A stretch of DNA of 64,000 bases from a virus (taxonomy: Duplodnaviria; Caudoviricetes): the IMG/VR virus record IMGVR_UViG_3300020045_002401, positions 17,849-81,848 of that record; one strand, 5' to 3'. Each line of letters begins with the position of its first letter. Positions within the stretch are counted from its first letter, which is position 1. The translations under genes were made by a program, and so were the position numbers. The notes under the pieces were generated by a model. The model was not told the DNA's origin and searched no databases. It saw nothing but the letters and a program-made list of their open reading frames with translations. Shown here piece by piece: positions 2,293-60,507 of this stretch.

Positions 2293-2316
2293 TGCCCATA
2301 GAAGAAGGTTTATACG
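2293..2316 (-). repeat. Dispersed 24-bp motif copy (CGTATAAACCTTCTTCTATGGGCA)
   Basis: Exact spacing match to consensus; intergenic. Confidence 0.9.
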
Positions 2317-2347
2317 TGTTAGTTAATTTAACAAAATTTTAACACTT

Positions 2348-2355
2348 TACATTTG
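2348..2355 (+). promoter_or_regulatory. Possible Bacteroidetes-type -7 promoter element TAnnTTTG
   Basis: TACATTTG at 2348-2355, about 290 bp upstream of ORF 2642; no clean -33 TTTG. Confidence 0.25.
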
Positions 2356-2438
2356 GAAGATATACCTCATATTACTATATTTCAAATATATATATTTATA
2401 TATAGTATTATATACCTAAGTATATATAAGACTTAAGC

Positions 2439-2462
2439 CGAATAAACTCTCGACTATGGGCA
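2439..2462 (+). repeat. Dispersed 24-bp motif copy (CGAATAAACTCTCGACTATGGGCA)
   Basis: Exact spacing match; intergenic. Confidence 0.9.
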
Positions 2463-2641
2463 GGCTATTAACCCTTAACCGATATAGGCTTATATACAAG
2501 GTAGTACTATAGGAACTACTGACTATTATACAGATGTTCGTACATCTGGTAACCTCAGACCCTCTTGACCCTTAAACTTTATATATTTATACTAATGAAA
2601 CAATACTAACATTTACTAATTTTAATTAACACATAATAACG

Positions 2642-3163
2642 ATGGCAACCGATATTATTCCTATCCAACTTCAATTATATAGAAGTTTACTTACTGACTC
2701 TCTTAATAGTCTGACTAATGAAATGTATGCTAATAACATTAAAACAAGTTATAAGTATGACATTACTGCTGTACCTAAATCAGCTTACCCTTCTATTGCT
2801 AATCCACATAAAGCTTTATACTTATTTAGAGTATATGCAATAGATAAGTCAAGAAATCCAATTGGAGAAACCCACTACTTATATAATCAATACTATTCAA
2901 AAGAAGTTATTGAGTCTATACATACTATAGAAATAAAAGCTATTAAAGAATGGTTTATTATGGCTTCTAAAGCTTTATATAATGTTATGCATGATATGTA
3001 TATTGAAGAAGCTAAAGCTGTACAAGATTTTACTGATTCATTAAAAGCTGAAGGTGTAACACAAGATAACCTTACTGCTAAGAATACTATTCAAAATACT
3101 AATATTATTAAGCAACAGGAAGCTAAGATAATGCAAATAATGCCTAAGATTATTACTGAATAA
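2642..3163 (+). CDS. Hypothetical protein
   Basis: 173-aa ORF, first gene of the plus-strand block. Confidence 0.75.
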   Translation: MATDIIPIQLQLYRSLLTDSLNSLTNEMYANNIKTSYKYDITAVPKSAYPSIANPHKALYLFRVYAIDKSRNPIGETHYLYNQYYSKEVIESIHTIEIKAIKEWFIMASKALYNVMHDMYIEEAKAVQDFTDSLKAEGVTQDNLTAKNTIQNTNIIKQQEAKIMQIMPKIITE

Positions 3164-3165
3164 CA

Positions 3166-3603
3166 ATGAATATTGATAATACTCTAGCAAGAATAATAAC
3201 AGAAACTCAAAAACTTACTGCTAATGAGTATGGTATAGATTTAACATTTGAACAAGTACATGAAGTTATAGAAGTTCAACTTACTTCAACTGTATATGCT
3301 CTTACTAAAAATATACCTATTCATTGGAGAGGTTTTATGAAGTTTATTTGGACTAATAAAAGAGCCCGTAAAGCAGAATTTGACCCTGTATTTAAAGCTA
3401 TACAAGATAATGCTCATAATCTTACTGATAGAGAAATTGATTATTATACATATTTAGCTGGTGTTGCTGCAAGTTCTGCTAAACAAGAATTAGAAAAATT
3501 AAGTAGTCATTCTAAAGCTTTAAGTCCTGATGAGATTAAAGCTATTCCTACTAATGTATCTAAGTTCCGTCAATTTACTTGTTTAATTAAACAACGCCAA
3601 TAA
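3166..3603 (+). CDS. Putative HU/IHF-like DNA-binding protein
   Basis: Helix-helix then IPIHWRGFMKF, resembling the HU/IHF V-x-L-x-GFG-x-F strand; IHF-like genes are common in crAss-like phages. Confidence 0.45.
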   Translation: MNIDNTLARIITETQKLTANEYGIDLTFEQVHEVIEVQLTSTVYALTKNIPIHWRGFMKFIWTNKRARKAEFDPVFKAIQDNAHNLTDREIDYYTYLAGVAASSAKQELEKLSSHSKALSPDEIKAIPTNVSKFRQFTCLIKQRQ

Positions 3604-4271
3604 TGGTAAGACACTATGTAGGAGAAGAAGATAATGAAGTTGTTGTACATAAAAAACAATGCTTCTTAATTCCTGAATTTAAGGAACTCTTTGATAGAGA
3701 TAAAGGATGTAAACAAGATCCTAAAGGTAAACATCAACTTGTAGCTTGTGCTGAATTAAAATATATATATTATTATAATGACCCTCGTAGTGAATATTAT
3801 AATACTCCTCTTTCTGCTTCTCAGGATACTGTACGTGATTTAAGTGGTATACCTAATAACTGGAAAGCTGATAAAGTATTTGATAAGGCAGTTATAAAAT
3901 ATAAAGAACTACAAAAACTTAGTTCTGCTGGTAAAGCTTATTTTTCTGCTGATGCTGCATTATATGATTTAGGTGCTGACACTAGTGAATTATTAGAAAT
4001 AGTCAGGGACTTAAAAACAGACTTGAGAGTAGCAGTACAATTGACACAAAAGAAAACAAAAGAATATACTCTTGAAGAATTAGAGTTAGTAACTAAACTA
4101 ATAAATAAATTAGATAATGTTACTAATACCCAAGATAAGATAATAAATATTATTAACAAATTACCAAAACTTATAATTACTATTAAAAGTTTGAAAGAAC
4201 AGTATGCTCAAGAAGATAATGAGAATAATATAGTAGTAGGTAATAGAGAATTAGGTAATAGAGAAGATTAA
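3603..4271 (+). CDS. Hypothetical protein upstream of terminase (small-terminase candidate by position only)
   Basis: 222-aa helical/coiled-coil ORF overlapping the upstream stop codon. Confidence 0.6.
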   Translation: MVRHYVGEEDNEVVVHKKQCFLIPEFKELFDRDKGCKQDPKGKHQLVACAELKYIYYYNDPRSEYYNTPLSASQDTVRDLSGIPNNWKADKVFDKAVIKYKELQKLSSAGKAYFSADAALYDLGADTSELLEIVRDLKTDLRVAVQLTQKKTKEYTLEELELVTKLINKLDNVTNTQDKIINIINKLPKLIITIKSLKEQYAQEDNENNIVVGNRELGNRED

Positions 4272-8108: not shown

Positions 8109-10463
8109 ATGCTTTTACCTAATCAACTACTTACAGCTAAAGAAAAAGCTATACGAAATCAAGATACTGGACTTACTAATATAGAAGAAACTATTGTTCA
8201 CTATATAGATAATTCAGGATGGAAAAAAGAATATGATGAAGTTAATAAACTATTTGCCGCAGTAGAAGGTATTATAGACTATAATGAATATAAGGCAATA
8301 TTTGGTTCTACTAACCAAGATAATGGTGCTAATACAGATTTTATGTATAAAGCTAAATTAGCTAATTACAATTGTCTTATGGGTATTGTTAAATTATTAC
8401 TTGGTGAATTTGGTACACGTTCTCATGAATATGAAGTTGTTAATCTAAACCCTAATGATGATATTAGTCGTCAAAAGGGTTTATCTATGTTACTTAAAGA
8501 GTATCATAAAAAGAAAGTTCTTATGGATTTTCAAAAGATAACAGGTTTAGCTCCTACAGAAGAACAACCTTTACCTGAATTACAAACTCTTGTAGATAAC
8601 TTTAATACTACTTTTAATGATGCTACATTAATAAAAGGACAAGAAGCTTTAGATTTTATTAGATTTTATTGTGATATTGACCATAAAATTATTGATGCTT
8701 ATTATGATTGGGTTGTAACAGGTGGTGCTTATACATATAAAGATGTTCTTAATGGGGAAGTTGTATATGAACATGTACCTAGAAATGAACTCTTTGTTAT
8801 TAATATGAAACCAGGGTCTTCTTTAGTAGAAGAAGCGGATGTTCATATTAGACGTAGAATAATGAGTCCTTACCAAGTATTAGAAATGCTTCAAGATGAA
8901 TTAGAAGAAGATCAAATTAAAGCTTTTGAAGCAGAAGTTAATAATGGTTTTAATGAATATAATCAACAATATGTAGTAACTAATAGAAATGGTGTAATAA
9001 ATTCACAATCTAATTATGTGAACTCTACTATACCAATGATATGTTATACTAATGGATTAGAAGTTTTTCATGTTGTTTATACTACTTATAAAGATATATA
9101 TGTTTTATCTTATTTAGATGAATTTGGATTACCACAAGAAAAAGAAGTTACTGCTGAATATGAATTACAACCTGAATTAGGTGATATAGGTATTAGTAAA
9201 GAGTGGTATACTTGTAAATATCAAGGGTATAAAGTATTAGATTATTTCTTTAAATGTGGGGAAGTTCCTTTTGACCGTTCTGATGTAGATTCTAAAGGTA
9301 ATTTAAAATCTTGTTATAATGGTATTATTGCTCGTAGTAGAGTAGGAGAAATTAATTCTATAGTTAAAGAAGGATTAGTATATCAACGTACTATTAATGT
9401 ATTGAAATTTAGTATAGAAAAATTAATTAATAAAAATAAAGATAAAGTTCTTATTATGCCATATGGATTAGTACCTAGAAGTAAAGGTATTAGTACTACT
9501 AAACAAGCTTATCATATGGAAGCTACTTCTTTATTATGGGTTGATGAATCTGCTCCTAATGCGGCTTTTGCTGCTCAAATGATTAAATCTGTTGATATGT
9601 CTTTAAATGGTATTATCAATGAAATTAGTAATTTAGTTGTACAAACTAAAAATGAATATTGGGAAGCTATTGGTATGAATGCCCAAAGATATTCTGATGT
9701 AAGTCAATATGCAGGTAAAGCTACTACAGAACAAGCTATTGTACGTAGTGCTATTATTACTTATGAACTTACTCGTGCTTTTGATAAGATGCTAGAAAAA
9801 GATTACCAAGGTTTATTAGATATATCTAAAATAGCTTGGATTGATGGAATTAAAGAACCTTATATATATAGTGATAGTTCTCGTGGCGTATTTGAAATGA
9901 ATGTTGACGATGCTAACTATCACGCTAGTTCTAATTATAATGTATTTGTAAAGGATGCTACTACTAATACTAGGGGTATTGAAGCTATGAGAAGTTTTGC
10001 AGGTTCTATGATACAAAATGGGGCAAGTGCTTCTGCTGTTAGTAAAATGTATACTACTAATAGTACTTCTAAAGTTAGTGTATTACTTGAAAAAATGGAA
10101 CAAGCACAACAAGCTATAGAAGAACAAAAAGCTCAAGCTGACCATGATAGACAGATGCAATTACAAGAACTACAAAATGAATTACAAGCTGCTCAAACAG
10201 AATTAAAACAATATGAAATTGATAGTAGATTAGAAGGTGTTAAATACACTGCTGATATGCAATATGCAGGAAAAGAGTTGACTACAGGTGATGATAACCA
10301 AGACTTGCCCATAGAAGAGGATAATACGTTTGATGAAAATCTTGCAGTTAGAGAGGCTAATAGAAAAGAAAAGATGGATAACCATACTATTAGAAAAGAT
10401 AATAAAGAACTATTGCTTAAAGAGAAATCTTTAAAGCAAAAGAAAGTAACGAGTAATAACTAA
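8109..10463 (+). CDS. Portal protein
   Basis: 784 aa between terminase and capsid genes; EAIGMNAQRYS...ATTEQAIVRS portal-like segment; C-terminal coiled coil. Confidence 0.85.
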   Translation: MLLPNQLLTAKEKAIRNQDTGLTNIEETIVHYIDNSGWKKEYDEVNKLFAAVEGIIDYNEYKAIFGSTNQDNGANTDFMYKAKLANYNCLMGIVKLLLGEFGTRSHEYEVVNLNPNDDISRQKGLSMLLKEYHKKKVLMDFQKITGLAPTEEQPLPELQTLVDNFNTTFNDATLIKGQEALDFIRFYCDIDHKIIDAYYDWVVTGGAYTYKDVLNGEVVYEHVPRNELFVINMKPGSSLVEEADVHIRRRIMSPYQVLEMLQDELEEDQIKAFEAEVNNGFNEYNQQYVVTNRNGVINSQSNYVNSTIPMICYTNGLEVFHVVYTTYKDIYVLSYLDEFGLPQEKEVTAEYELQPELGDIGISKEWYTCKYQGYKVLDYFFKCGEVPFDRSDVDSKGNLKSCYNGIIARSRVGEINSIVKEGLVYQRTINVLKFSIEKLINKNKDKVLIMPYGLVPRSKGISTTKQAYHMEATSLLWVDESAPNAAFAAQMIKSVDMSLNGIINEISNLVVQTKNEYWEAIGMNAQRYSDVSQYAGKATTEQAIVRSAIITYELTRAFDKMLEKDYQGLLDISKIAWIDGIKEPYIYSDSSRGVFEMNVDDANYHASSNYNVFVKDATTNTRGIEAMRSFAGSMIQNGASASAVSKMYTTNSTSKVSVLLEKMEQAQQAIEEQKAQADHDRQMQLQELQNELQAAQTELKQYEIDSRLEGVKYTADMQYAGKELTTGDDNQDLPIEEDNTFDENLAVREANRKEKMDNHTIRKDNKELLLKEKSLKQKKVTSNN
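10306..10328 (-). repeat. Dispersed motif copy, 1 bp short (CGTATTATCCTCTTCTATGGGCA)
   Basis: Inside the portal 3' end, antisense. Confidence 0.8.
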
Positions 10464-10475: not shown

Positions 10476-11831
10476 ATGCCAGACGATGTTATAAACAAAC
10501 CTAATGACCAAATTAGTTCATTAGATGATGTAAGTTTAGAAGGAGTACATAATCCTGTTGAACCTATCCCGAATACTCCTTCTTCTACGGGCAATCCTCA
10601 ACAACAAGCTGTAGATCCACTTGCTACCGTTATTAATAAAGAAGATGTTGTTGTAATTCCTCCTGTTGATAATACAGACGCTATTCCTACATTTAATATT
10701 AAATCTTTTGAAGATTTAACTGCTTTATTAACTACTAAAACTTCTGACCAACTATCAGAAGAAGAAAACAATGAACTTTCTGATATAGTAGATGCTTTTG
10801 GGGGTACTGGATTTAATGATAAAGGAGAAATTGTTGATGCTAATAATGCTGTGTTATTTAATGCTGACCAACTTAAACATTATTTAGAAACTAGTGAATT
10901 ACCTGTTGATGAACAAGGGGATTTTGTAGATGCTAATGGTAATGTAATAAAAACTAAAACAGAATTATATAGAGAAAGTACTACTGTAGGAACAGTAATA
11001 AATGCTTTAGCTAAAAATTTTGAAGTATCTTTTGCTGATACTTTTATGCCTGATGATACTGAAGATTCTTTAGTTGATGTAGTTAATAAAGTAGTAGGAG
11101 TTGTAGAAAAAGGAAGTGTAGAACGTTATATGCAAGCTAATCCTGAATTAGAAGCTTTCCGTAAACATTTACTTTTACACGGTTCTCCTAAAGGATATAA
11201 TTCTAGTGTAGTAGATTATGATAAGATTGATGTAAAGACTCTTTCTAAGGAAGCTAAAGCTTTATATGTATCTGATGCTTATAAAGCTAGTGGTAGAAAT
11301 TTAACACCTGCTTATGCTAAATATTTAGAAGGTCTTGATGATGAAACTTATAATACTGAAGTACTCGATAATATAAAAGTATTAAAAGATATTCAAACAA
11401 ATAAACAAAAAGAAATTGATACCCAACTTAAACTTAAAGAAGAACAAAGAAAACAAGATGCTCAAAAGTATTGGAGTACAGTAGAAACAACCATCAAAAG
11501 TGGTAAATTATCTAATCTTACTATTCCAATCCCTGAAAGAGATGCATTTTTAGCTTATGTTACAACACCGGTAAAAGACGGTATAACAAAAGATATGCTA
11601 GATGCGGAAAAAGAAGATGTATCTGCTGATTTACTTATGTCTTATTTGAGATACAAAGGGTATGATTTATCCGTTCTTGCTAAAAATATTGCTACTACTC
11701 AACAAGTACAGAGTCTTAGAGATAAAATAGGTAAGAACAAAGCACGTAATATTAGTAATAGTGATAAAGGACGATTACCTAAAACACAGAATGATAATTA
11801 CATACCAAATCTAAGTGAGGTAAATTTATAA
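10476..11831 (+). CDS. Acidic head protein between portal and capsid (scaffold/cargo-like)
   Basis: 451 aa, D/E-rich; crAss-like synteny. Confidence 0.7.
   Translation: MPDDVINKPNDQISSLDDVSLEGVHNPVEPIPNTPSSTGNPQQQAVDPLATVINKEDVVVIPPVDNTDAIPTFNIKSFEDLTALLTTKTSDQLSEEENNELSDIVDAFGGTGFNDKGEIVDANNAVLFNADQLKHYLETSELPVDEQGDFVDANGNVIKTKTELYRESTTVGTVINALAKNFEVSFADTFMPDDTEDSLVDVVNKVVGVVEKGSVERYMQANPELEAFRKHLLLHGSPKGYNSSVVDYDKIDVKTLSKEAKALYVSDAYKASGRNLTPAYAKYLEGLDDETYNTEVLDNIKVLKDIQTNKQKEIDTQLKLKEEQRKQDAQKYWSTVETTIKSGKLSNLTIPIPERDAFLAYVTTPVKDGITKDMLDAEKEDVSADLLMSYLRYKGYDLSVLAKNIATTQQVQSLRDKIGKNKARNISNSDKGRLPKTQNDNYIPNLSEVNL
10570..10593 (+). repeat. Dispersed motif copy (CGAATACTCCTTCTTCTACGGGCA)
   Basis: Exact spacing; inside ORF 10476. 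Confidence 0.9.
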
Positions 11832-45900: not shown

Positions 45901-48900
45901 AACCCTATTACTAAACAATTAGAAAAACTAAGAAAAGAAGTAGAAGATTTATTAATTGTAGAATATGGTCAACAAGCTGTAACTGATATGCAAAATAAAA
46001 TAGCTTCTGGTGCTCCTCTTGTTAGAGGTATTGAAGCTGATTTATTATATGGTGTATATAATCTTGATGAATTTATTACCAATGCTCTTACTAATCCTGC
46101 TTTTCAACAATACTTAAATAGTAAAGATATTAAACTTGCTGATAAAAGTTTATGGCAAAAATTAATGGAATTACTAAGTGGTTTATTAACTGCTATAGGT
46201 GTAAAAAAAGATAGTAAATTTGCTGATGCATTAGGTGGGATATTTGCTCTTACAGATGATATTAAGAAGAATCATTTGAAAGCTTTTCCTAAAGCAAAAT
46301 GGGCTAGAAGTATAGACTTTATTAATGAAAAGTTTAATTTAATTGATGACACGAATAAACTCTCTCCTAAGGGCAATCCTGACGAAATAGCTAATTTTAT
46401 TAATGATAATTTTGTTAATGCTACTGCTATAGTTATAGATAGTAAATATATTCAAGTTACTCCTACAACTATTACTAATACCGAAGATTTTGCTCCTTTA
46501 GTTCAAGATGATGGCTGGGATTTTTCATTCTTAAATTTAGAACAACAAGAACGTGAAATTAATAATGAAATTAGAGCTAATTATTATCAATACGGTGCTA
46601 TGCTTCGTGCTAGGGTTATTGAAGGAGAAAAAGCTGTACAACGTACTAAAGCCTCTGGTGATATTGCTGCAATAGAACAAGCTAATGAAAATCTTCTTGC
46701 TGATAAAGTAAACCTTATGAATATTCCTAAATTAAAAAGTTTACGAGATTTAGAATTGAAAGCTAATGAAGATTTAGCTAAAGTTAATAAAGTACTTAGT
46801 GAGCCTATGAATTCTGAAGATATTATATATGCTAGAAATGTATTAAATTTTTGGGCTAATGTTAGGGAATATACTTTTACTCCTAAACATACAGAATCTG
46901 AAAGTCTTATGCGTACATTTGGTAATATAGAAGATGATGCTCAAACAGCTACAAAGAAACTTGCCCTTATAGAGAAAACGTATTTAGAGTCTTTCATTAA
47001 AGATACTTTAGGTCGTGAACTTACATTAGAAGATATATTTAGTGATTATAAAGATGTAAGTGCTGTAAAAGCTCATACTAGAGATATATCTACTTATGAT
47101 AATGCTTTACTTACTGCTATTTGGAAAAAAGTACAAATTGCTAATATTCAAGCTGAAGAAGAGGCTTCTACTATGTTAGCTACTTTAGATGATTTAATAG
47201 TTAAAGTTATGCCTAAACTTACTAGTATTAATTCTAAGACTCCTTTTGAAATATTTAGACAATTAAGTAAAAATGGTAAAAAGACTAATCATTTAATAAG
47301 TCCTTATAGTTCTAAATTTTTTAGTGATAGGTCTGGCAATTTACATTATGCTAAAGAAAATGGTAATGCTGATTCTGTAAATAAATATGCTAAATGGGTT
47401 AAAGCTAATACTAGTGTTATTAATTTAGAATCATTATTTCCTCAAGATGGTATTATTACTTCTGAAATTGAAGCTAATAGAGAAGAATTAAGAAATAGAA
47501 TTGGTGATTTTAGATATAATTTATGGTTTAATGGACAAAATCGTAAGGTTAATTCTTATCTTAAACGTAAAGAAACTATGGAGGCTCTTATTAAAGAGCA
47601 AAATGGCTTAGAATTATTTGATGATATTAATACTAATGAAAATGCTTTTAAAGCCCTTAAAGGTTGGGATATAAAACATAGTCCTTATGAATTTAGTAAA
47701 ATTATTAATCAAGCTACTTATGAATATTATAGTGGTTTAGATGGTATCGATGGTTTTCAACATTATGAAGTATTACCTAGTAAACCTGACCATCTTAATT
47801 CAGATTTTGAAGCTATAGCTAATGATTCTGATTTAATGGAATTTTATACTGAATTTTCTGAATTATATGAAAATCTTAAAAAATATGTTCCTACTTCTCA
47901 ATTAGCTAACTTAATTTATGGAGGGTTACCAGTATTAGAGCAATCTATATATGATGCTTATAGTGTTAATGGTTTAAAAGCTGGATTTAAAGGTATTAAA
48001 TCTGCTTTAGTTAAAGCCAATACATCATCTTATTCTAATAAGAATAAACAGGAATTAGATTTAGTTACCGGAGAGAATGCTAAACATATGTATGTTGCTG
48101 GTATAACTTCTGATAGTAATTTTATTAAAGATTATATTAAATCTGAATCTATTAAATATGAAGTTGAAACTGGTAAACCTGTAACTGATAAACAAGAAGC
48201 AGAATTTAAGGAACAAGCTATTCATCTTGCTGCTCAAAGAAGAGATTTTGATTTAGGTAAAATGATGAAATTATTTGGTACTATTGTTATATCTCATAAA
48301 CAAATAGCATCTATAGAAGATTTAATTAAAATAGGTCAATATACTCTTAATTCTTATAAAGAAGTAGAACGTAATCCTGATGGAACACCTGCTGTTACAG
48401 TATTAAATGGAGTATCTACTTTACCTAGTACTACAGCTTTTACTAATACTAAAAAAGCTTTAGCTTATTTTGTAGATAGCCAAGTATATGGTAATATGAA
48501 AGATGAAGAAGGAGTTACTAATATTAAATTAAAAACTGCTGAAGATTCTGAAATAGCTAAAACTTATCAAGATACATTAAATGAATTAGAAACTAAAAAA
48601 GCTAATGGTGAAATTACACTTGAATTTTATGATGCTCTTAAATCTACTATAGATTCTAGTATTAAAAATTTAGGTAGTAATGTTGTTGCTTCTAAAGTAG
48701 GAGATTCTTGGCTTAAATATGTTCAACTTAAATTAATGGGTTGGAATATTTTAGGGGGTATTAGTAATAGTGCTTTTGGATTTATATCTAATATGATTGA
48801 AGCTGCTGGAGAAGGTAGTTTTACTTTAGAAGATATGAATAATGCTTATGCTATGACTGCTAGTAGTGTTGCTAAAAACCTTTCATTTAATAAATGGGAA

Positions 48901-49977
48901 GCTGGAGAATCTGGTAAGATTAGAAATGGTATGGATAAAATGAATGTATTAAAAGAAGCTTCTCACGAATTATACACTAGTAAAGATATAAATACTATTA
49001 GTGGTAAGTTTAAATTTGCTTCTCCATATAATATGAATCAACGTACTGAGTATTTAAATCAGGCTCCTATTATGATTATAATGGCTAAGAAAACTATGGT
49101 TAATACACCAGCAGGTAAAATTAGTATTTGGGAAGGTATGAATAAAGATTGGGAATGGGATACTGAAAAGTATGGTGCAGAACCTACTAAAGCTATTATT
49201 GATATGCGTATTGCTATAACTAAACAAATACAAAGACTTCATGGTAATTATGACCCAGCTTCGCCTTTAATGATTAAACAAAAATTTGCAGGTAGAGCAG
49301 TAAGTCAATTTAGAACTTGGTTATATGAATCTGTAGCTGTTAGATTTGAAAATGAAAGATATGAAGATGCTTTAGGTATTACTGTTAAAGGTAGATACAG
49401 AACATTAGGAGGTATTTTATTTGAAAATGAAAATAGATTAGGATTAAAACAAGGTAGTATTGAATTTGGTAAAGCCTTATTAAATTCTTTTACATTTGGT
49501 AAAGCTAAACTTAAATCATTTCAAAATACTAATTTATCTGATATAGATGCTCAAAATATGAGAAAAATATCAATGGAATTAGTATTATTATTAGATGTAT
49601 ATATTTTAATAATGTTACTTAAAGCTGGATTATCTGATGATGATGATGAAGCTAAAGCAATGTATAATGTATTATTAAATCAAGGTACTAGATTAAAATC
49701 TGATTTATTATTATATACTAATCCTGCTGAAGCTAGAAATATTATTAAAGATATTATACCTGCTGTATCTTTATTTGATGATATAGCTGGATTTATGAAA
49801 GCTGTGACTAATCTTGAAGAGGATGAAATTAAAACAGGTGTACATAAAGGTAATAGTAGAATTGGAACTAGTACTATGAAATTAATTCCAGGTGCATCTA
49901 AAGGATATAGTACTTATAACTCTATGTCACAAGTATTTGATAAAAGTATTAATCTAAAGGAAGATGAAGAGAAGTAA
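33979..49977 (+). CDS. Giant virion-associated RNA polymerase polyprotein (crAss-like), with zincin-like domain
   Basis: 5332 aa; GYRIPTSG and GSDFDVDK catalytic loop (DFDVD at 42757-42771); HEAIH at 45856-45870; N-terminal A/G-rich ejection-like region. Confidence 0.88.
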   Translation: MALNNDTNQGDNLESNLIEDSTGIVGAKDLSDIKPIEEVKNKELEAKIKAQVADFTPAKIEPSVKILPPEYSGGKSVSSPTTQEVVDKYGKIPDNEKRIITSSSDTAPELSQPSFLDTIVKVGQGDTSISRPIDQSINYDEYKDYLSKNHSYFDTETGLDKLRAQNQSEGMQVLNAGLRVLANVIPEGIKQTANAFDLEHLNAAEDGIGNIVADTMTEWQDSVKDTLPIYRENPGKALDFTDPAYLAETLESLVTSIGGFVLAGYATGGAASTVGKAIGGTVELASTINLGKKVTDGIKSSTSFQNALASAKAANIGSKAESLAVNFLLNQAEGRGIGAQVYADVYQREYNTALATGKSLEEAKEIGKDKAGKAGVAAINFNRVTMLLNVTSSDLFLQSPKNVGKLIEKGGVKQLLKEGGQEAGEEYINDLAQMYGEGLDTDKPLTFKNSIAHLATAEGIESPILGFIGGAGQTALTKAGKYIQSSSNESYMRHFNQYIMEHPIDGANKDSIIASATNYAQQQADKDKPLGFVNRGNASADRTSTAQQLESLYVAQQSNLEDYKKATLADSMNDVVNATISSSFSVDLMNQIKNDPTMLQEQKDNLLERSLLSHQAYIALQVGTENQLKDLYRTYANMDEDTAKQRGMFNGESKDDINYYKNKAERAIKSIENFEKNYTSSKQYVNSGEVYDRLNNNYFNVRDVEELSKKHNELLSNINEFSRDLYEQEGNEEALEDVANRSAEGKAIVHPSLWESKMEEDFKDIQKALKVAKDSRVKNAIQLNTIMSTKYNQELSETINLYRIKQQGERVKKNKVAGISNTFGKVFSKSKEVENRANTVKEPKTTKSNESSTTGKAQTTKAKPTSVPNSTQVAPTAQNNYTPPLVSNTTTQNNSVNDVNNNPDLFSFSYSVPGASDVMKSFIASDNKKIHVILKSQYSLQAKIDKLNEILSDKINYEIKETPLIAPDGEAVTQKSIDVIQAKIKELHNYKEDFSPDVIDEQQAYESDIVDFGLDLEEYQLNVANRATEDGDITTSTFDVLTSKFNIYSAILDQMAKRGIDTTSLDDVMTEFKTILGTKLLKAEFNSLQGLFNFANNTTENSTYADLFNSDKDNNNDLDNFNKLAKVNIQTGEFTYDLDKESRMAMQTTKQGIIINNPDTEVKGLAYPIYNEIGRDKIAYLAQNYSKVITKQTNEDGQEYYEVDKVTVENTINSALDPTVLEEDYFKEGDSITFIPLDSFTDEEGNVVLAKDLPVGERPIGVIKDGELVKGLYLHTTSWITAENITNTPANIEADRQSLFNLRERIINGEQVTTIINDVTTGAPISSANGEMNTFANEFPEHPVGVVRNGQLELANGRIESYPEFLHFDEGDVVSIVNGYYYYGSRTRLFSPMRVAILSSLTAFATATHTQGSEFLLNKTGKDLLKPKGVESYLRDFIYTAPIAIDNVYPTNLEEFRNALQTIGEDRVIVNFIGNSFYIGRGGALDVFTLSAGQYKGNAEALEYVLSQIEALLQDAYANVSLQSLTSNNPLHIISEQGVSKTFDTYEDYVKQVSVSPYVSITLPSGNKITTIQKRVSFDIPDIEQNSDKVASTVTKKGTPKKPKTKKEIITTESGKQQVIEFTSLDTDSNEINFDDVTEDFSPLVINTSDMSPDVQDEALESPSYINGISLELQEAVVHDLVQEYYNLLLQNRGIDVPIVPLEQFFDSKVAFFNDVVAKAEAINHPNYNKLALQVQTITNNKAQFLNITRQQLTSELKVKITDTALVLEPVDVDINTTLENVDAPDGVELEDVQEDSRIYSMNEFAIDPKTQLSYEIKALLYGVIDAKLAYKEGVPNIVPRKLGLQIPLYVNPNAVYQDLMMLFSKSSINDGMDTSNFSSNPDSALLPKIQIAIEILKSQYTTKPYYANVVKKLEVLDTKTQIQFITTFNKNNTDHLKVIEYVDKSGEGKALRLIRNNNQNAHDQLISSWSETVKAIGGYIPGVNNIELDDKLYQAFTNAYNQMAGNVALHTYDNFKVLFALVGINLSVDAFEKLRDGTYVNGRIKSITQQFEHTDGWLKRMKDRLVFIKTNNLDANTLHNNDVFKELADFILKFEKSVFNTSYKNGNGDTIYGVTNNRYFMERLTGLKNNAKLLKQLANNAFSSKSSWLSELLNSNNGTVNKGKFHSTFSYNTLDSYTTRANNKTKMVDSMNRKELIQLSLSLFYNGGESLYNKTTPIHTFIIPALSDKSNMFTVKAPGRFYNMVNNKLSEQDLTYLRTQLFEGEFHRIVQSTVKGNIGTKGYDQGSRKFLMFPEFNNIDGLFIDGNINTEALGDSELIERINDKINDYISNIIFKTYQDWSNLGLLRQGKENVYSDKMSFIDTAYATVSKSNPNNSLQEASSVVLNYTVNYLVANANMQQLIFNDPAFYYKKGKRNSETGADITTDIAETWDNVTKRYAAVNGGKDDFGFPAGSKFSVLSINDTKVTSNTLEYLSSLWAGHALEKEVIDTYSNMEPGDAQEYTSLEEHLDRMVYSSMIAEDKAKRILTTYNKTGKVSKKDLGALLINFKPLYFNTFMGTKGVMETVYIKTSSFPLIKELTKGTQLDELREYLDNPKNKVKVAVFASGIKAGNPAESLDLFDSKGNMISGALKGKLDNFILKDLPREGHGNQQSNPDKSKSTVINDGTQQAKLIFTNILDVQGFKNPFGEGEIGGRDLATIYLNKYEERFKINFDKLMKELGVKNGIITNIAKLKKILVDEATTRGWTFNEASSFELDTLGLNFEIPLWMSVSSSKIENLLSAIVDNRIRKRKRFGRSYILASEAGIRTFDKAIDNDNSGITFTSDFTGELRNSFNKDGEMTSAEILVPFRFYDNEGNLLSIKDFMIDNQLDLTKLPANLLEGFGYRIPTSGINLMSNIKVVGFLPESYGDTIIAPADFTKQMGSDFDVDKFYSSLYATYYNKETKSLEKLTRTHNDNRNQIIDNVFKLRNDLKRLTNYKGAKKDLLIEETKAKIKLEEAKPWYKLKNLDILVIDNELTDIQRAVLNNPSNVIQRARTKPLMFGRLEEMVTKFHDATTDLYYTFLDRSIQDKNYLNGQLGKTAVGNFSLDMILNSLGQYVTTPLFFQNVYTDKDGRKKVVEAKIKAFGFSNNNINDPFLNDGSGRYKSDVLEGLMAAALDNGKEQILGKLGISDNTFDFIRAMVATGYNEEVIMGILAQPIIKMYLSPTTGFNTIMKMKGALSKIKGADRNLADFSLASLSEDLEKFNELYSNLKEVDKLVATSFKENTIPDTALALQFYSLGLFISMEKRGRALSQIRSALNVDSAGVGKNTIYSAGKLEQADAAKNNLTINNPTAYFVNTKYNSDTQEYEKISSSIGNSALFYGANTNYQLWNRYFPFDNEVVNRVIKTIADRTGKDIFRLNSYSDYATLILKDFKSYLSAKTVPTITPAFMKGMQTNEIYKYIVHSTPTHQSLGEFILELRNLKDEQGNVKYINRFLNDLNIKPVDKTTTSENNPAIVDINYATINRVDNSENKVVNAMIDMLNKPVSLGLWNGNIIDSRQLMNLLTTYQLISKGIPAPNKFIEFIPNNDLKRMGYYHQMDNTYSDFVNDNLNSSTKLTETQFLVQHLQHNMEDYYNVGQERAYTGYFENGQFNNADLAKLPPYIVFKDEKGYHTQYKTKQGFVRLNPLGWGSNTEYNHDIINPTSINHNNNKSMVNVFEFTKASAEVTENVITTFIPTTTLIDSSLGTAVEILIPFENENGETMNGSYKAYPLIMTANGSSDSFYLVKNGATYNTIYHPITGVVIPINGLSAFTSKQERDSKIMVALSVVPANVIEALGLSEQLESFNIESIESNIETFMTPSRDKQKDVFPSDINDTTRNFADELGLSDTSLNLEDKYSLIFDRIRNTVGESTPLGYFLAKAKEIVPALGNTPIVMDTTLKAKGVYKSNGASSYIVINPNKFTTIEEMANVIAHEAIHGLFKKQIQVKNPITKQLEKLRKEVEDLLIVEYGQQAVTDMQNKIASGAPLVRGIEADLLYGVYNLDEFITNALTNPAFQQYLNSKDIKLADKSLWQKLMELLSGLLTAIGVKKDSKFADALGGIFALTDDIKKNHLKAFPKAKWARSIDFINEKFNLIDDTNKLSPKGNPDEIANFINDNFVNATAIVIDSKYIQVTPTTITNTEDFAPLVQDDGWDFSFLNLEQQEREINNEIRANYYQYGAMLRARVIEGEKAVQRTKASGDIAAIEQANENLLADKVNLMNIPKLKSLRDLELKANEDLAKVNKVLSEPMNSEDIIYARNVLNFWANVREYTFTPKHTESESLMRTFGNIEDDAQTATKKLALIEKTYLESFIKDTLGRELTLEDIFSDYKDVSAVKAHTRDISTYDNALLTAIWKKVQIANIQAEEEASTMLATLDDLIVKVMPKLTSINSKTPFEIFRQLSKNGKKTNHLISPYSSKFFSDRSGNLHYAKENGNADSVNKYAKWVKANTSVINLESLFPQDGIITSEIEANREELRNRIGDFRYNLWFNGQNRKVNSYLKRKETMEALIKEQNGLELFDDINTNENAFKALKGWDIKHSPYEFSKIINQATYEYYSGLDGIDGFQHYEVLPSKPDHLNSDFEAIANDSDLMEFYTEFSELYENLKKYVPTSQLANLIYGGLPVLEQSIYDAYSVNGLKAGFKGIKSALVKANTSSYSNKNKQELDLVTGENAKHMYVAGITSDSNFIKDYIKSESIKYEVETGKPVTDKQEAEFKEQAIHLAAQRRDFDLGKMMKLFGTIVISHKQIASIEDLIKIGQYTLNSYKEVERNPDGTPAVTVLNGVSTLPSTTAFTNTKKALAYFVDSQVYGNMKDEEGVTNIKLKTAEDSEIAKTYQDTLNELETKKANGEITLEFYDALKSTIDSSIKNLGSNVVASKVGDSWLKYVQLKLMGWNILGGISNSAFGFISNMIEAAGEGSFTLEDMNNAYAMTASSVAKNLSFNKWEAGESGKIRNGMDKMNVLKEASHELYTSKDINTISGKFKFASPYNMNQRTEYLNQAPIMIIMAKKTMVNTPAGKISIWEGMNKDWEWDTEKYGAEPTKAIIDMRIAITKQIQRLHGNYDPASPLMIKQKFAGRAVSQFRTWLYESVAVRFENERYEDALGITVKGRYRTLGGILFENENRLGLKQGSIEFGKALLNSFTFGKAKLKSFQNTNLSDIDAQNMRKISMELVLLLDVYILIMLLKAGLSDDDDEAKAMYNVLLNQGTRLKSDLLLYTNPAEARNIIKDIIPAVSLFDDIAGFMKAVTNLEEDEIKTGVHKGNSRIGTSTMKLIPGASKGYSTYNSMSQVFDKSINLKEDEEK
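36521..36544 (+). repeat. Dispersed motif copy (CGAATGAGTCTTCTACTACGGGCA)
   Basis: Exact spacing; inside the giant ORF. Confidence 0.92.
37736..37759 (-). repeat. Dispersed motif copy (CGATAGGTCTTTCTCCTACGGGCA)
   Basis: Exact spacing; antisense in the giant ORF. Confidence 0.88.
41397..41421 (+). repeat. Dispersed motif copy, 1 bp long (CGAATATCTATCTTCTCTATGGGCA)
   Basis: Inside the giant ORF, in a different codon phase (LEYLSSLWA). Confidence 0.8.
46352..46375 (+). repeat. Dispersed motif copy (CGAATAAACTCTCTCCTAAGGGCA)
   Basis: Exact spacing; inside the giant ORF. Confidence 0.92.
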
Positions 49978-51129: not shown

Positions 51130-51666
51130 TTATTTAATTAATAATGAGTTAATTTGTTTAACGAAGCTTTCTTTTATAGCTTCTGTTGGTGGAATAATAG
51201 TTTTACCATTGAAACGCACATATTGTGTTTCATTAATAGGAATTAAATTTGAAATAGGATTATTACAATTAATTGTATGTGTTTGAGTGTTTTCTATTAT
51301 ATGATTATTCATATACGTATTAACCACGTCGAGAATCTTCTCTACGGGCAAGTTATGAATAACTGAAAAATATTGGAAACACATATATCCTAATAAAGCT
51401 ACATTAGCGATACTTTCTTCTGTAGTTTCATTAACAGCAAAAGGTATAGATAATATAGGATATTTAATACTGTTATCTTTTTTATCACCTAAGCTTTCAA
51501 ATATATTATAACCTACATTTTTAAAATCTACTTCCGCTTTAGAAGTAGATATTTGTGCTATTGTAACAGCGAGTTGTGTTAAATCAACTTCTGTTAATAC
51601 TTGTTTAAGTGGGATACCATTTTCAGTTACATATAACTTTAAGAAATTGTGTATAGCAGTTATCAT
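51130..51666 (-). CDS. Hypothetical protein
   Basis: 178-aa ORF in a tightly packed operon. Confidence 0.7.
   Translation of the reverse strand: MITAIHNFLKLYVTENGIPLKQVLTEVDLTQLAVTIAQISTSKAEVDFKNVGYNIFESLGDKKDNSIKYPILSIPFAVNETTEESIANVALLGYMCFQYFSVIHNLPVEKILDVVNTYMNNHIIENTQTHTINCNNPISNLIPINETQYVRFNGKTIIPPTEAIKESFVKQINSLLIK
51327..51350 (+). repeat. Dispersed motif copy (CGTCGAGAATCTTCTCTACGGGCA)
   Basis: Exact spacing; antisense to the host CDS. Confidence 0.85.
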
Positions 51667-52697
51667 TATACTAGTATTAAATCATTATAAACTTGATTTC
51701 TAATAACTTGTTGTCCAGTCATTAAAGTAGATTTAAACTTTATATCAGAATCAGTATAAGATTTTACATTTTGTAAATAACCTGTAATAGCATTATACAC
51801 ACCCCAACCTGTACCTACAAAATCTTTTTGACCAAGACCATTATAATAATAGTCAAGATTAGTTTCAAGGATATTCTTGCCCTTAGATGAGAGATTATTC
51901 GTGTCTATCTTATAGGCATTAGCCATAATATCTATAACTTCTCCTTCTGTAATATTAATATCAAGGAGACGTTCAAAATACTCCATGTGTTTAATATCTC
52001 CTTTACTTATAAGTCCTAATGTAGTTTTCGCCGCTATAAGTTTCTCGTGTGCAGATTGAGTATGTCTTATAGATACCTTATTAACACTACCTTGTAATGC
52101 TAATGTTAAGGTATTATTACATACTACTCTAATAGGTGTATAAGCAACTGTAATAGCTGAACTACCATCATGTGATAAACTGAATAGTAAATACTTATCA
52201 ATTTGGTCATTATGTATAGTCATACTTTCAGTTACTTTTGCTGTAACAAATACTATTTCTCCATTACCTAAACAACCAGCTGTTTCATATTGTGCGATAC
52301 CGTCTTGTGCAATATCATCAAAGAAATTAAAGGCTTCTATGTTTTGTACCGGTGTATATTTACTACCTACAATTCCTAAAGGATAATCATTATCTTTACG
52401 AACAATAGCAAATTTATCACGTAGTGCAAACATTTTAGTATAGTTAGGCACTAATTTACCTCCAGCTTTAGTAAAGGTTCTTTGTATAGTAGCACATTGT
52501 TTTGCATCTTCAAAACTTATGTCAAGACTAGGAGAATAAAGTTTTCTTTTTTCTACTTCAAAATCTAATCCCCCTAACTTTATAGCTTCTTTTGCATATA
52601 AGGTTTCTACTATATGTCCAAGACCGTGCCAAGGAACTTCTTTTTTACTGACAAAACTTGCTTGTCCATTTGCTTTAATATTTAGGTTATGAGCCAT
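51666..52697 (-). CDS. DUF932 family (phage/plasmid-like) protein
   Basis: MAHNL...PWHGLG, YTPVQN, YETAG-L-NG, SHDGS, TPIRVVCNNTL motifs. Confidence 0.85.
   Translation of the reverse strand: MAHNLNIKANGQASFVSKKEVPWHGLGHIVETLYAKEAIKLGGLDFEVEKRKLYSPSLDISFEDAKQCATIQRTFTKAGGKLVPNYTKMFALRDKFAIVRKDNDYPLGIVGSKYTPVQNIEAFNFFDDIAQDGIAQYETAGCLGNGEIVFVTAKVTESMTIHNDQIDKYLLFSLSHDGSSAITVAYTPIRVVCNNTLTLALQGSVNKVSIRHTQSAHEKLIAAKTTLGLISKGDIKHMEYFERLLDINITEGEVIDIMANAYKIDTNNLSSKGKNILETNLDYYYNGLGQKDFVGTGWGVYNAITGYLQNVKSYTDSDIKFKSTLMTGQQVIRNQVYNDLILV
51878..51901 (-). repeat. Dispersed motif copy (CGAATAATCTCTCATCTAAGGGCA)
   Basis: Exact spacing; inside the DUF932 gene. Confidence 0.9.
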
Positions 52698-58343: not shown

Positions 58344-59020
58344 TACTTTTTCTTTCTAGCAAATCTAACTACAATACCTTCTCTACTATATTTAATAGGA
58401 GGTATTACATTAGCTTTTAGTTTATCTTCTAATTGCTCTTCTCCAAGTATTGGTAAACTCCAATATTCTTCTTTCAAACTTCTAATACCTAATGTTTTAA
58501 CTTCAGCAGGTAATTCAGTTTTAATATATTTTTCTCTTTCTTTAACCATTTCTTTAAGTTGAGCAGTTAATTCATAAAGTCTATTAAGATATAAATCTCC
58601 ACATTCTTTATAATCCATAGTAGTAGCACCTCCTATAGCTTCTATTGATATAGTAGCACCATAAGCTTGATATTTTTCTCCTCCTAAAGTATTAATGATT
58701 TTATCTCTAAACCACGCTTTAGCTTCTTTATTAGTTCTAGCAACATCACTTCCTAAAAAATACTCATGCAAATGTTGCATTTTCTTAATCATTAATAATG
58801 TTTTAATAGGGTCAGCATTACCTTCCTTTAAAGCATTAAAAATTTGATTACCAAATTCACTACCTTCTATATTAAGAAAATTACTAACTGTACCTACTAC
58901 AGTTTCTTCTTCCATATATACTAAACCTTGTTCTTCTGCATTAGCTTCATAGGTTGATAATAATTCAGCAGGGATAGCTTCTTCGTTATCCGGATTCCAT
59001 TCTTGATTTTCTGTGTTCAT
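58343..59020 (-). CDS. Hypothetical protein
   Basis: 225 aa, acidic N-terminus. Confidence 0.75.
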   Translation of the reverse strand: MNTENQEWNPDNEEAIPAELLSTYEANAEEQGLVYMEEETVVGTVSNFLNIEGSEFGNQIFNALKEGNADPIKTLLMIKKMQHLHEYFLGSDVARTNKEAKAWFRDKIINTLGGEKYQAYGATISIEAIGGATTMDYKECGDLYLNRLYELTAQLKEMVKEREKYIKTELPAEVKTLGIRSLKEEYWSLPILGEEQLEDKLKANVIPPIKYSREGIVVRFARKKK

Positions 59021-59046
59021 TGTTTATATAATTAAATTAATTTATG

Positions 59047-60096
59047 TTAAAAAGGTAAATCATTAGTATCATGTTTACTAATATCAATACCAAGTTTTTC
59101 TAATATAACATCAAAAGCTTCTCTAGCTTCATTATTATAACAATACTTATTTCTAAAATCAACTAACATTTCTGTTATACCCATTTTAGATATTAAGAAT
59201 TTTTTAATACCTTGTAAAGCTTTAGTAAAATAAGATTGTGATTTTAAATGTTCTTTAATATCTGAATTTTTAATCACAATTTCTTCTCCTTGTTCAGTAG
59301 CAACAAATTCTAATTTACCAGCTATAACTTTAGGTTTAATAGCTACATACTTACTACTAGGTATAATTTGTACATATTTCATATCATCTAATTCTTGGTC
59401 TTTAAAACTAAACTTCTGTTCAGCTTCATTTATTTTAGATGTATGCCAACTAGTATTAAATGAATTAGGAACTCTCCTATCTCTATCTAATTTTAATACA
59501 CTAGGTCTAAGATTATAAGACTTCTTAAAATTTGGTACATTACATACAAATAATCTACCTACATAAAGATTACCTACAGCTTTATCTACTATATCCCCAT
59601 GAGGTTCAGCAGTATATAATATATCTTTCTTTTTAATAAGATTATTATTAAATTCACTAAATTCAACAGTAGGTAATTCCATACTAATAGAAAAACCGTT
59701 AATAATACTTCCTCTATCTTTTACTACTAATGCTAATGTTTTACCTATATGATTCTGATTTACCCAATTAGCTGTAATTTCTTTTTTAGGAGTATGAATA
59801 GTAATTTTATAATCTAATCTAAGGAATACTAACATAGCCATTTTAAGACCTTCTCCATGTTGACCTATAGCTTCTGTATTATCACCTTTAACAGATTTAC
59901 CTATTTGTAAAAATTCTAAATTTTCAGGTTTGTATTCATTACTTATTGTTACACAACTACAATGGTCAATTTTTGATATTCTTTGAGTAAATGTACCATA
60001 ATCCATAAAATTCTGATAAATTTCTCTTAATGCTTCTTGTATTCCCCAATCTTTAAGGTATTCTTCTCCAATACCATAATGTATTATATTAGTCAT
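59047..60096 (-). CDS. GHKL (HATPase_c-like) ATPase
   Basis: WGIQEALREIYQNFMD (N box), IGKSVK, IGQHGEGLK (G boxes). Confidence 0.75.
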   Translation of the reverse strand: MTNIIHYGIGEEYLKDWGIQEALREIYQNFMDYGTFTQRISKIDHCSCVTISNEYKPENLEFLQIGKSVKGDNTEAIGQHGEGLKMAMLVFLRLDYKITIHTPKKEITANWVNQNHIGKTLALVVKDRGSIINGFSISMELPTVEFSEFNNNLIKKKDILYTAEPHGDIVDKAVGNLYVGRLFVCNVPNFKKSYNLRPSVLKLDRDRRVPNSFNTSWHTSKINEAEQKFSFKDQELDDMKYVQIIPSSKYVAIKPKVIAGKLEFVATEQGEEIVIKNSDIKEHLKSQSYFTKALQGIKKFLISKMGITEMLVDFRNKYCYNNEAREAFDVILEKLGIDISKHDTNDLPF

Positions 60097-60106
60097 ATTG
60101 TTAATA

Positions 60107-60289
60107 TTAATTGTTATACGTTCTTATACGTTTTCTTTTTTTATTACCTTTTATACCCCATAATGTACCCTTATACACATTAATACAAGCAATATAATAA
60201 TAATTAGCACTTTCTATTTTAAATCGTTTACCAGCTTTATCTACACCAGTAATGCAATAACTTTCTATTCTTTGGTCATTAGCACTCAT
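60107..60289 (-). CDS. Small hypothetical protein
   Basis: 60 aa; first gene downstream of the 60290-60533 intergenic gap. Confidence 0.65.
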   Translation of the reverse strand: MSANDQRIESYCITGVDKAGKRFKIESANYYYIACINVYKGTLWGIKGNKKRKRIRTYNN

Positions 60290-60442
60290 ATTAAGGAATC
60301 TATTAATTAAATTGTAGTAAAATTTTGAATGGTTTAAGGTATTAAAAAATTTTGAATATAATAGAACATAACTAGAAAAAGTTTGTTAAATGTGGATGGA
60401 CTGTGTAAGTATGTGAAGCTAAAATCAGGTCTTTGAAAAGCT

Positions 60443-60466
60443 TGCCCATAGGAAAGAATTAATTCG
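60443..60466 (-). repeat. Dispersed motif copy (CGAATTAATTCTTTCCTATGGGCA)
   Basis: Exact spacing; intergenic. Confidence 0.9.
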
Positions 60467-60483
60467 ACTTTATCAACCTAAAT

Positions 60484-60507
60484 CGAATACACTCTTCTCT
60501 ACGGGCA
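60484..60507 (+). repeat. Dispersed motif copy (CGAATACACTCTTCTCTACGGGCA)
   Basis: Exact spacing; intergenic, 17 bp from its inverted partner. Confidence 0.92.

Follow-up and report, generated by a model that had tools for sequence, protein, structure and literature searches.

A dispersed DNA word, regularly spaced on each strand of a divergent crAss-like phage genome, as a possible priming signal

The 64,000-nucleotide stretch of viral DNA analysed here (the window), which corresponds to positions 17849-81848 of the 81,848-bp IMG/VR record IMGVR_UViG_3300020045_002401, carries a two-part DNA word that is scattered through the genome on both strands, is regularly spaced along each of them and is under purifying selection at the DNA level. 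To judge from sequence comparisons, the word is a local dialect of a class of signal carried by several crAss-like phages, and we tentatively consider that it could be a fixed priming signal for the DnaG-type primase of the phage, at which synthesis of a DNA strand would start. Literature searches rendered no published description of such a dispersed word in crAss-like phages, in line with the initial annotation of this DNA, made from the letters alone, which had not recognised it as a described crAss-like element. The greater length of the word, its regularity per strand, the complete plus-strand series, the inverted partners, the dyads and the kin words in other phages go beyond that annotation. 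Coordinates refer to the window unless given as genome coordinates, which equal the window coordinate plus 17848.

Occurrence and anatomy of the word

The core CTAHGGGC is found 18 times in the window against an expectation of 1.79 (maximum of 6 in 100 dinucleotide shuffles), and the longer pattern with fixed spacing, CG-N9-T-N3-CTA-N-GGGC, 13 times against an expectation of 0. The initial annotation had listed these 18 copies, 13 of them with identical spacing and five with the core but a shifted CG, and all were recovered with exactly the coordinates and strands that it gave; its estimate by eye of about 28% for the GC content agrees with the 28.2% measured. Its count of 18 copies holds for the window; four more exact copies and one near-copy lie in the remainder of the record. 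The near-copy was found by a position-weight scan (genome 6336(-), core CTAAAGGC). There are, therefore, 22 exact cores and 23 copies in the 81.8-kb genome, 14 on the plus and 9 on the minus strand. The copies of the window, together with two features located between the first two of them, are listed below, where C denotes the position of the C of CTA, score the position-weight score, and names beginning with G or L the relatives described further on.

2291-2316, minus strand: motif copy, C at 2301; intergenic, left half of the junction dyad between divergent gene blocks; score 36.8; kept in G002, G003 and G004
2327-2344, no strand: near-palindrome TTTAACAAAATTTTAACA between the junction copies; identical in G000, G002, G003 and G004
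2380-2430, no strand: alternating (AT)n stretch between the junction copies, after the near-palindrome; identical in the same four diverged genomes
2439-2464, plus strand: motif copy with the top score, 41.5, C at 2454; between genes, where it forms the right half of the junction dyad; kept in four relatives
10304-10329, minus strand: motif copy with CG shifted by 1, C at 10314; runs antisense to the portal gene, in its C-terminal tail; kept in 7/7 covering relatives
10570-10595, plus strand: motif copy, C at 10585; sense, in the gene that follows portal, close to its N-terminus; adjoins a hypervariable stretch
17067-17092, plus strand: motif copy, C at 17082; stands alone, sense; kept in G004 and, with a 1-nt shift, in G005 and L105
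21324-21349, plus strand: motif copy, C at 21339; sense in an endolysin-like gene; CG shifted
23761-23786, minus strand: weak motif copy, C at 23771; antisense; score 18.3; absent at the orthologous place of G005
24243-24268, plus strand: motif copy, C at 24258; sense; G005 lacks it at the orthologous place
28560-28585, minus strand: weak motif copy with a score of 19.8, C at 28570; runs antisense to a 1353-aa gene, in its C-terminal tail; kept in G005
29361-29386, plus strand: motif copy, C at 29376; sense; kept in G005
36521-36546, plus strand: motif copy, C at 36536; sense in the 5332-aa gene
37734-37759, minus strand: motif copy, C at 37744; antisense in the 5332-aa gene; kept in G005
41398-41423, plus strand: motif copy with shifted CG, C at 41413; sense in the 5332-aa gene; kept in G005 as TTATGGGC
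46352-46377, plus strand: motif copy, C at 46367; sense in the 5332-aa gene; kept in G005
51327-51352, plus strand: motif copy, C at 51342; antisense in a minus-strand gene; kept in G005
51876-51901, minus strand: motif copy, C at 51886; sense in a DUF932 gene; kept in G005
60441-60466, minus strand: motif copy, C at 60451; intergenic, forms with the next copy a tight back-to-back dyad (hairpin z -4.7), of which it is the left half
60484-60509, plus strand: motif copy, C at 60499; intergenic, right half of the same tight dyad

The word proved to be longer than the 24 bp initially assigned to it, since it continues downstream into AAG(Y)(Y) and has an extended upstream box. It measures ~28 bp (26-30) and consists of the box CGAATAAAC, a G-free pyrimidine tract, (C/T)TA, Y, GGGC and AAG; in a logo of 22 copies the order of the elements is S-N-CG, an A/T-rich box (AATAAAC), the pyrimidine tract, CTA, Y, GGGC and AAG-Y-Y. 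When copies are aligned on the core, the information spans from about -17 to +12 and totals ~30 bits. When 61 copies of this genome and its relatives are pooled, T-A and GGG never vary, and 59 copies have the C after GGG. The base preceding TA is C or T (TTA in the relative G005), so that of the CTA described at first as invariant the TA stands, whereas the first C can be replaced by T in relatives. The ten bases ahead of GGG are essentially free of G, the 5' side containing 0-2 G across the 61 copies, and the strongest conservation covers 8-10 nt 3' of the triplet. The word is asymmetric and, as read from the aligned copies, single copies contain no internal inverted repeat. Rfam gathering and tRNA scans gave no match, and neither the flanking composition within 400 bp nor phased A-tracts were associated with the sites. 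A scan for a Bacteroidetes-type -7 box (TANNTTTG) ahead of genes rendered two cases. A possible extra weak copy on the minus strand, at 46963-46976, reads TAAGGGCAAGT after a pyrimidine tract, with ATA replacing CTA, and is located 600 bp from the copy at 46367(+).

Arrangement along the genome

The copies disregard the division of the genome into a minus gene block (genome 67927 through the record end to 19494) and a plus gene block (genome 20490-67825). They are grouped in 14 clusters, 2.9-9.7 kb apart, each of which contains exactly one plus copy, while nine also contain one minus copy in inverted orientation; the spread of sites every 3-9 kb put forward in the initial annotation is supported, at 3-10 kb. 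The 14 plus copies follow each other at ~6 kb (mean gap 5.8 kb; coefficient of variation of the gaps 0.33; P = 1e-4 versus random placement) and the 9 minus copies at ~9 kb (coefficient of variation 0.32; P = 1e-3). This regularity per strand holds whatever the direction of the genes, whereas the pooled sites clump into pairs, the minus copies being found at a median distance of 271 bp from a plus copy (P = 5e-4).

Three intergenic pairs are back-to-back dyads. In two of them, which are tight (genome 14646(-)/14685(+) and window 60451(-)/60499(+)), the upstream boxes abut, and the dyads would fold into hairpins if single-stranded (z -4.1 and -4.7, respectively). The third pair, 2301(-)/2454(+), flanks a spacer of 17% GC at the junction of the gene blocks; the near-palindrome and the AT stretch located in this spacer could be part of an origin or of a divergent promoter region. 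A further pair, genome 6313(+)/6336(-), is convergent, with the cores ~20 bp apart.

Selection on the DNA and conservation in relatives

Genome-wide, 17 copies are located in coding sequences (10 sense and 7 antisense) and 6 are intergenic. For the window the figures are 14 copies in open reading frames, sense and antisense, as had been reported, and 4 in intergenic DNA (2301(-), 2454(+), 60451(-) and 60499(+)). Synonymous-codon shuffling of every open reading frame left a mean of 0.2 copies in coding sequences (maximum of 4 in 300 trials), to be compared with the 16 exact copies observed genome-wide, so that the enrichment survives the codon-preserving control proposed in the initial annotation. 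Rare codons are indeed imposed by the word, ACG, GGC, TCG and CCC being used 1.8, 2.1, 0.75 and 1.15 times per 1000 codons, respectively. The statement that the copies occur in several codon phases turned out to be exaggerated: one phase accounts for 8 of the 10 sense copies, which encode xN(K)xS(T)TGK-like peptides, and one phase for 6 of the 7 antisense copies, which lead to DLP(I/V)E-like peptides, both kinds of peptide being linker-like. Many copies are near gene ends, three antisense ones being located in the last 6% or the first 13% of genes. In our reading, a DNA word has been placed where the protein can bear it, in the least harmful frame.

Five IMG/VR contigs from the same or similar samples, with nucleotide identities of 65-88%, and three more obtained by means of the portal protein were used as relatives; the portal-based searches rendered only seven close relatives plus one at 25% identity. 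The core was kept in 30 of 36 orthologous comparisons, against 24% of control flanking 7-mers from the same alignments, and the word holds its places in the relatives with indels and hypervariable sequence all around. Of the copies on either side of the portal gene's end, both are kept in the 7 of 7 relatives that cover that stretch. Conservation of the immediate flanks (0.69) is lower than that of distant flanks (0.79), and changes in the pyrimidine tract among relatives are mainly C<->T. Some turnover is found as well, the copy at genome 9943(+) having been lost in two relatives and G005 having additional minus copies. Since codon shuffles nearly abolish the copies and relatives keep the core above the level of flanking 7-mers, selection acts on the DNA. 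This had been deduced before from the coding placement of the copies and now stands on the shuffles and the relatives as well, neither of the two refuting outcomes named in the initial annotation having come about.

With regard to the surroundings of the copies, the coding stretch 10596-10720, right after the copy at 10585(+), is hypervariable among relatives, with in-frame indels, and local alignments at several plus copies end right after the word.

Kin words in other crAss-like phages

In crAss002 (MN917146) there are 29 copies of box-CTCCTY-TAYGGGGGAA, 16 on the plus and 13 on the minus strand, with mean gaps of 5.8 kb and 7.2 kb, respectively, both series being regular (P = 2e-4 and 2e-3), and there are two tight intergenic dyads of the same build. 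Both phages share the upstream box, the pyrimidine tract, TAY and the G-run, a mean gap of 5.8 kb on the plus strand, occurrence on both strands regardless of gene direction, location in genic as well as intergenic DNA, and back-to-back intergenic dyads. They differ in that the word consists here of GGGC followed by AAG, with the box CGAATAAAC, whereas that of crAss002 has GGGGGAA and the box ACAGYAA, and in that the minus copies stand beside plus copies here (P = 5e-4) but not in crAss002 (P = 0.21).

A word of its own, CTTCTGGAG, is found in crAss001 (MH675552), with 27 copies versus 1.7 expected, on both strands and in both gene blocks; it has a G-poor 5' side, and its minus series is regular (P = 8e-4). 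In the genome of cr127_1 (NC_055886, Crevaviridae), an element at least 33 nt long, (T)AATGGCCACAAGGGCGAGAGGTGTTCCGAAAT, which includes GGCCACAAGGGCGAGAGG, is present in 11 copies. They occur on both strands and in inverted pairs (e.g., 11358(+), 11918(-), 28704(-), 28873(+), 42046(-) and 42234(+)), mostly in intergenic DNA, with some in a giant gene, and may represent the version of the signal in that family or a separate element. In phi14:2, k-mer enrichment showed no comparable word. The features of this class of signal are all present in the phage under study, namely the grammar of tract, TAY and G-run, with the reservation that the run is GGG plus C here and not five G, ~20-35 copies on both strands, spacing per strand, conservation of position, and a Crassvirales genome. 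This genome shows that the class extends to a far-removed branch of crAss-like phages, which has a dialect of its own and one more box upstream.

The phage and its gene content

Gene scans assigned TerL, portal and major capsid protein of the phage to crAss-type PHROGs. The best matches of TerL among GenBank phages are 28-30% identical, and those listed belong to Crassvirales with the exception of one Flavobacterium phage; the gene order runs parallel to that of crAss002. A megablast search with 10 kb against GenBank phages gave no match. By these gene families and this gene order the phage is classed as a member of Crassvirales on a divergent, deep branch, and a giant protein with a DFDVD motif agrees with the crAss-like character ascribed to it at the outset. 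Genes for replication include those of PolA, superfamily 1 (SF1) and superfamily 2 helicases, a DnaB-like helicase, a phrog_12622 primase, a RecT-like protein and an ATP-dependent ligase; the SF1 helicase is RecD-like, and a PD-(D/E)XK exonuclease is encoded as well. Three genes are relevant to the functions considered below:

62817-63944, minus strand: gene of a DnaG-type primase (phrog_12622), candidate reader of the motif by a presumed link
60975-62300, minus strand: gene of an ATP-dependent DNA ligase (PF01068), of interest for the sealing of Okazaki fragments or nicks
33979-49977, plus strand: gene of a 5332-aa protein with DFDVD and HEAIH, presumed crAss-type virion RNA polymerase and alternative candidate reader

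The 5332-aa protein contains one DFDVD (aa 2927, 42757-42771), the signature given for crAss virion RNA polymerases (bioRxiv 10.1101/2020.03.07.982082), and one HEAIH (aa 3960, 45856-45870), and it is presumed to be the virion RNA polymerase from motif and gene order only. Its residues 1501-4000 gave no meaningful phmmer match to PDB sequences, and neither did the primase; the whole protein had no phmmer match (E <= 1e-4) to the proteins of crAss002, crAss001, phi14:2 or cr127_1.

The record has a terminal repeat of 121 bp (genome 1-121 = 81728-81848, window 63880-64000), which matches contig G002 over its first 121 bp at 100% identity, the rest of G002 being ~82% identical. It is probably an assembly node common to two strains and not a physical genome end. 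The idea that contig ends are physical breaks at motif sites was discarded, as the ends are located in hypervariable or strain-shared segments.

The word as a possible priming signal

Few viruses of the human gut are as abundant as the crAss-like phages, whose replication, packaging and injection are little understood. A signal of ~30 bits that recurs on each strand at intervals of a few kb, even where this imposes rare codons on essential genes, must serve a central DNA transaction. We put at roughly 0.3 the probability that this transaction is priming, with the word acting as a fixed start signal for the DnaG-type primase; we infer here both who reads the word and that a primer is started upon reading. 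In such a process, a replication fork would expose the strand bearing the word, and the primase (62817-63944), together with the DnaB-like helicase, would recognise (C/T)TA with its 3' flank YGGGCAAG. An RNA primer would be started opposite the T of the triplet and the G-free 5' part would be copied, ~15 nt up to the CG. Plus copies would serve forks moving rightward and minus copies forks moving leftward, whereas back-to-back dyads, such as that around the 17%-GC junction spacer, would act as bidirectional start zones. The regular spacing per strand would answer the need of lagging-strand or strand-displacement synthesis.

DnaG primases have three initiation triplets, CTA, TTA and CTG, and start at the middle base (PMC2978363). 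The same three occur in the phages compared: CTA here (TTA in G005), TTA in crAss002, and CTG inside the word of crAss001. Moreover, the (C/T)TA of the word is accompanied by the conserved 3' flank YGGGCAAG, as in a primase site, and a G-free tract with C<->T changes is as expected of the template for a purine-rich primer. The selection at the DNA level, the regularity of each strand, the precedent of inverted priming signals in RSF1010 (see below) and the genes of a primase, a DnaB-like helicase, PolA and a ligase likewise speak for priming.

Several considerations weigh against a primase as the reader. The ~30 bits of the word far exceed what any known DnaG or T7 primase site needs. The signal does not track the primase, since phrog_12622 is present in 5 of the 5 genomes compared (this phage, crAss002, crAss001, phi14:2 and cr127_1), including phi14:2, which has no comparable word, and cr127_1, whose repeat has no clear YTR triplet. 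Tight dyads with shared palindromic upstream boxes suggest a dimeric binder of double-stranded DNA, unlike the scanning of a primase, and the match of the triplets could be a coincidence.

A priming code might also be general to crAss-like phages, a proposal that we hold as tentatively as that for the word itself. It would comprise a few dozen high-information sites per genome, made of a triplet and a lineage-specific flank and evenly distributed on each strand, with dyads acting as origins and the dialect co-evolving with the primase-helicase. If this were true, the deep-branching lineage studied here would show the code to be older than the split of the gut families.

Alternative functions

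A second reading of some appeal, though we are more doubtful of it, is that the word marks localized single-strand interruptions, which a phage nickase would cut within the word (e.g., after CTA) in the packaged DNA and which the ligase would reseal after entry. Localized nicks are known in T5, phiKMV-like and tf/LUZ24-like phages, with the consensus CGACxxxxxCCTA/CTCCGG in phiKMV and TACT/RTGMC in tf, and nick words are the only experimentally known class of conserved words that run through phage genes at conserved positions (PMC3517423). The word shares with them a short consensus at conserved positions that is indifferent to coding, and with that of phiKMV the two-part build of CGA box, spacer and CTA at the nick. 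The complete plus series, with one copy in each of the 14 clusters, is in favour of nicking, and an accessory nickase would explain that phi14:2 has no word. However, the nick systems described are one-stranded and not evenly spaced, whereas 9 of the 23 copies are here on the other strand and each strand is regular; nicks on opposite strands as close together as in the tight dyads or in the convergent pair at genome 6313(+)/6336(-) would carry the risk of a double-strand break, and no nickase gene was identified. As for the ligase, its gene is present here and annotated in crAss002 and cr127_1 (3 of the 5 genomes) but neither in phi14:2 nor in crAss001, the latter of which does have a dispersed word, and the phyletic patterns of primase and ligase do not discriminate among the readings.

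A third possibility, which we regard as unlikely, is that a phage RNA polymerase, presumably that of the virion contained in the 5332-aa protein, uses the word as promoter or initiator, with the start at GGG and with transcripts that express genes, pull the DNA in or prime replication. Promoters of the T7 group are ~23-28 bp long and rich in information, with an AT-rich upstream part and CTA-N-GGG at the start (T7, CTATAGGG), and the word resembles them in length and in its build of AT-rich box, CTAY, and GGG at the presumed start. Its ~30 bits would suit a freely diffusing enzyme that must ignore host DNA, and three intergenic minus copies are located 60-650 nt upstream of genes, in sense. 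A related two-barrel phage RNA polymerase provides a precedent, as it has conserved promoter motifs and a 26-nt terminator motif (bioRxiv 10.1101/2022.12.01.518664). The arrangement of the copies, on the contrary, fits mRNA synthesis poorly, as 9 of the 23 point against genes and most plus copies, four of them in the giant gene, lie inside and not ahead of the genes concerned. For these antisense and intragenic copies, and because the virion-polymerase transcripts of phi14:2 have no common upstream motif (bioRxiv 10.1101/2020.03.07.982082), a promoter for mRNAs is unlikely; the initial annotation had suggested a promoter of the virion polymerase. One-directional, transcription-coupled entry would be suited by the complete plus series, but crAss002 has a full series on both strands, for which one-way entry has no need. 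Transcription-coupled entry and self-marking, both put forward in the initial annotation, are conceivable but gained no support from the analysis. Neither a whole-genome PF00940 search nor open reading frame scans rendered a candidate T7-type RNA polymerase, an absence that is weak evidence because the control genomes of the search gave no match either.

We find it quite improbable that the word acts in the manner of Chi or as a self-mark, attenuating a translocating helicase-nuclease of phage or host that reads it on one strand, so that the DNA is protected or sent to recombination. Known Chi sites are G-rich, as is the word, such a signal needs regular spacing per strand and a bound on the largest gap, and the RecD-like helicase, the exonuclease and the RecT-like protein of the phage would be the appropriate machinery. 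However, Chi sites have 5-8 nt, and the word has ~28 nt in two parts. When a subset of 16 specified bases was compared with one genome each of 185,579 species, 94 stretches were found, each with a single match and in unrelated taxa. A pattern scan of metagenome contigs gave at least 120 single matches, and by position-weight and blastn comparison none of the loci listed from either the metagenome or the genome set belongs to a relative. Besides, dialects differ within a single host genus, crAss001 and crAss002 both infecting Bacteroides. A host Chi is unlikely, therefore, because of the length of the word, its lineage-specific dialects and the fact that no sampled bacterial genome has more than one match per stretch.

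An architectural site in duplex DNA, bound by a phage IHF/HU-like or parS/matS-like protein for genome organisation during packaging or ejection, is very unlikely in our view. The proteins of the IHF type typically have long, asymmetric sites, which the word would fit, dyads with palindromic boxes fit a dimeric binder, and the structural modules of crAss002, crAss001 and phi14:2 include genes annotated as IHF-like. A binder of duplex DNA, however, should ignore the strand, whereas the sites are regular per strand and clump when pooled, which makes a purely architectural site unlikely, and the flanks show no signal of bending or A-tracts. The parS/matS-like role suggested in the initial annotation fits poorly for the same regularity per strand and because parS and matS sites are palindromic and clustered, whereas the word is asymmetric and dispersed.

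Finally, the absence of any signal, with the copies being a small mobile repeat, a shared peptide motif or a codon-usage artefact, was tested and can hardly be maintained: sense copies do mostly encode similar peptides, but the word occurs in both orientations, in three phases and in intergenic DNA, is abolished by codon-preserving shuffles, leaves reading frames open, has no repeated flanks and matches no Rfam family or tRNA. A miniature inverted-repeat transposable element or repetitive extragenic palindrome was likewise rejected, as similarity stops at ~28 bp, reading frames are uninterrupted and copies are orthologous in relatives.

Since the sites tell precisely where cultured crAss002 and crAss001 could be examined for nicks, for starts of primers, for 5' ends of RNA or for bound proteins, the question of their function is directly testable. 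Should the copies be priming or nick sites, they would offer handles for the engineering or typing of crAss-like phages.

Avoidance of GATC

GATC is strongly avoided in the window, with 15 sites (e.g., at 3717, 4552 and 7336) versus 126 expected, which suggests pressure from a GATC-cutting restriction system of the host. The sequence TGACCCT is over-represented, with 26 occurrences genome-wide (e.g., at window 3381, 7383, 12673 and 61206), and its 23 genic copies are all sense and in one phase (xxT GAC CCT). Asp-Pro is written GAC-CCN in 49 of 55 cases, though GAT is 6.8 times commoner than GAC. TGACCCT was considered as a second signal word and rejected as a by-product, its excess arising because GATC avoidance steers Asp-Pro to GAC-CCN.

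Comparison with known systems

The word can be compared with several classes of known sites. It is strand-specific, G-rich and spread along the genome like Chi, but Chi has 5-8 nt and is defined by the host, whereas the word is longer and specific to a lineage. It differs from the promoters of the T7 group, in spite of the resemblance in build, in that no such polymerase gene was found here and many copies are antisense or intragenic. As in the nick words of T5, phiKMV-like and tf-like phages, a conserved word runs through genes at similar positions in relatives, and that of phiKMV is in addition two-part, with a CGA box and CTA at the cut; theirs, however, are single-strand and unevenly spaced.

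Closest to the priming function that we tentatively favour are the sites of primases. The T7 primase needs a 10-nt 3' flank, which results in ~26 strong sites in 14 clusters, 1-6 kb apart (PMC12839067). Together with DnaG sites, those of T7 resemble the word in the (C/T)TA triplet, in a conserved 3' flank of ~10 nt and in the existence of a few dozen sites in clusters kilobases apart, whereas the T7 sites are loosely defined and have not been reported as a conserved high-information word, and the word has here ~30 bits and a box 9-15 nt on the 5' side. The primase RepB' of RSF1010 starts on two 40-nt inverted repeats, ssiA and ssiB (PMC8567376), which, like the word, are long, sequence-specific priming signals on opposite strands in inverted orientation; RSF1010 has, however, two signals at one origin, each with its own hairpin and read by a primase of another family, whereas the phage has 23 copies dispersed along its genome.

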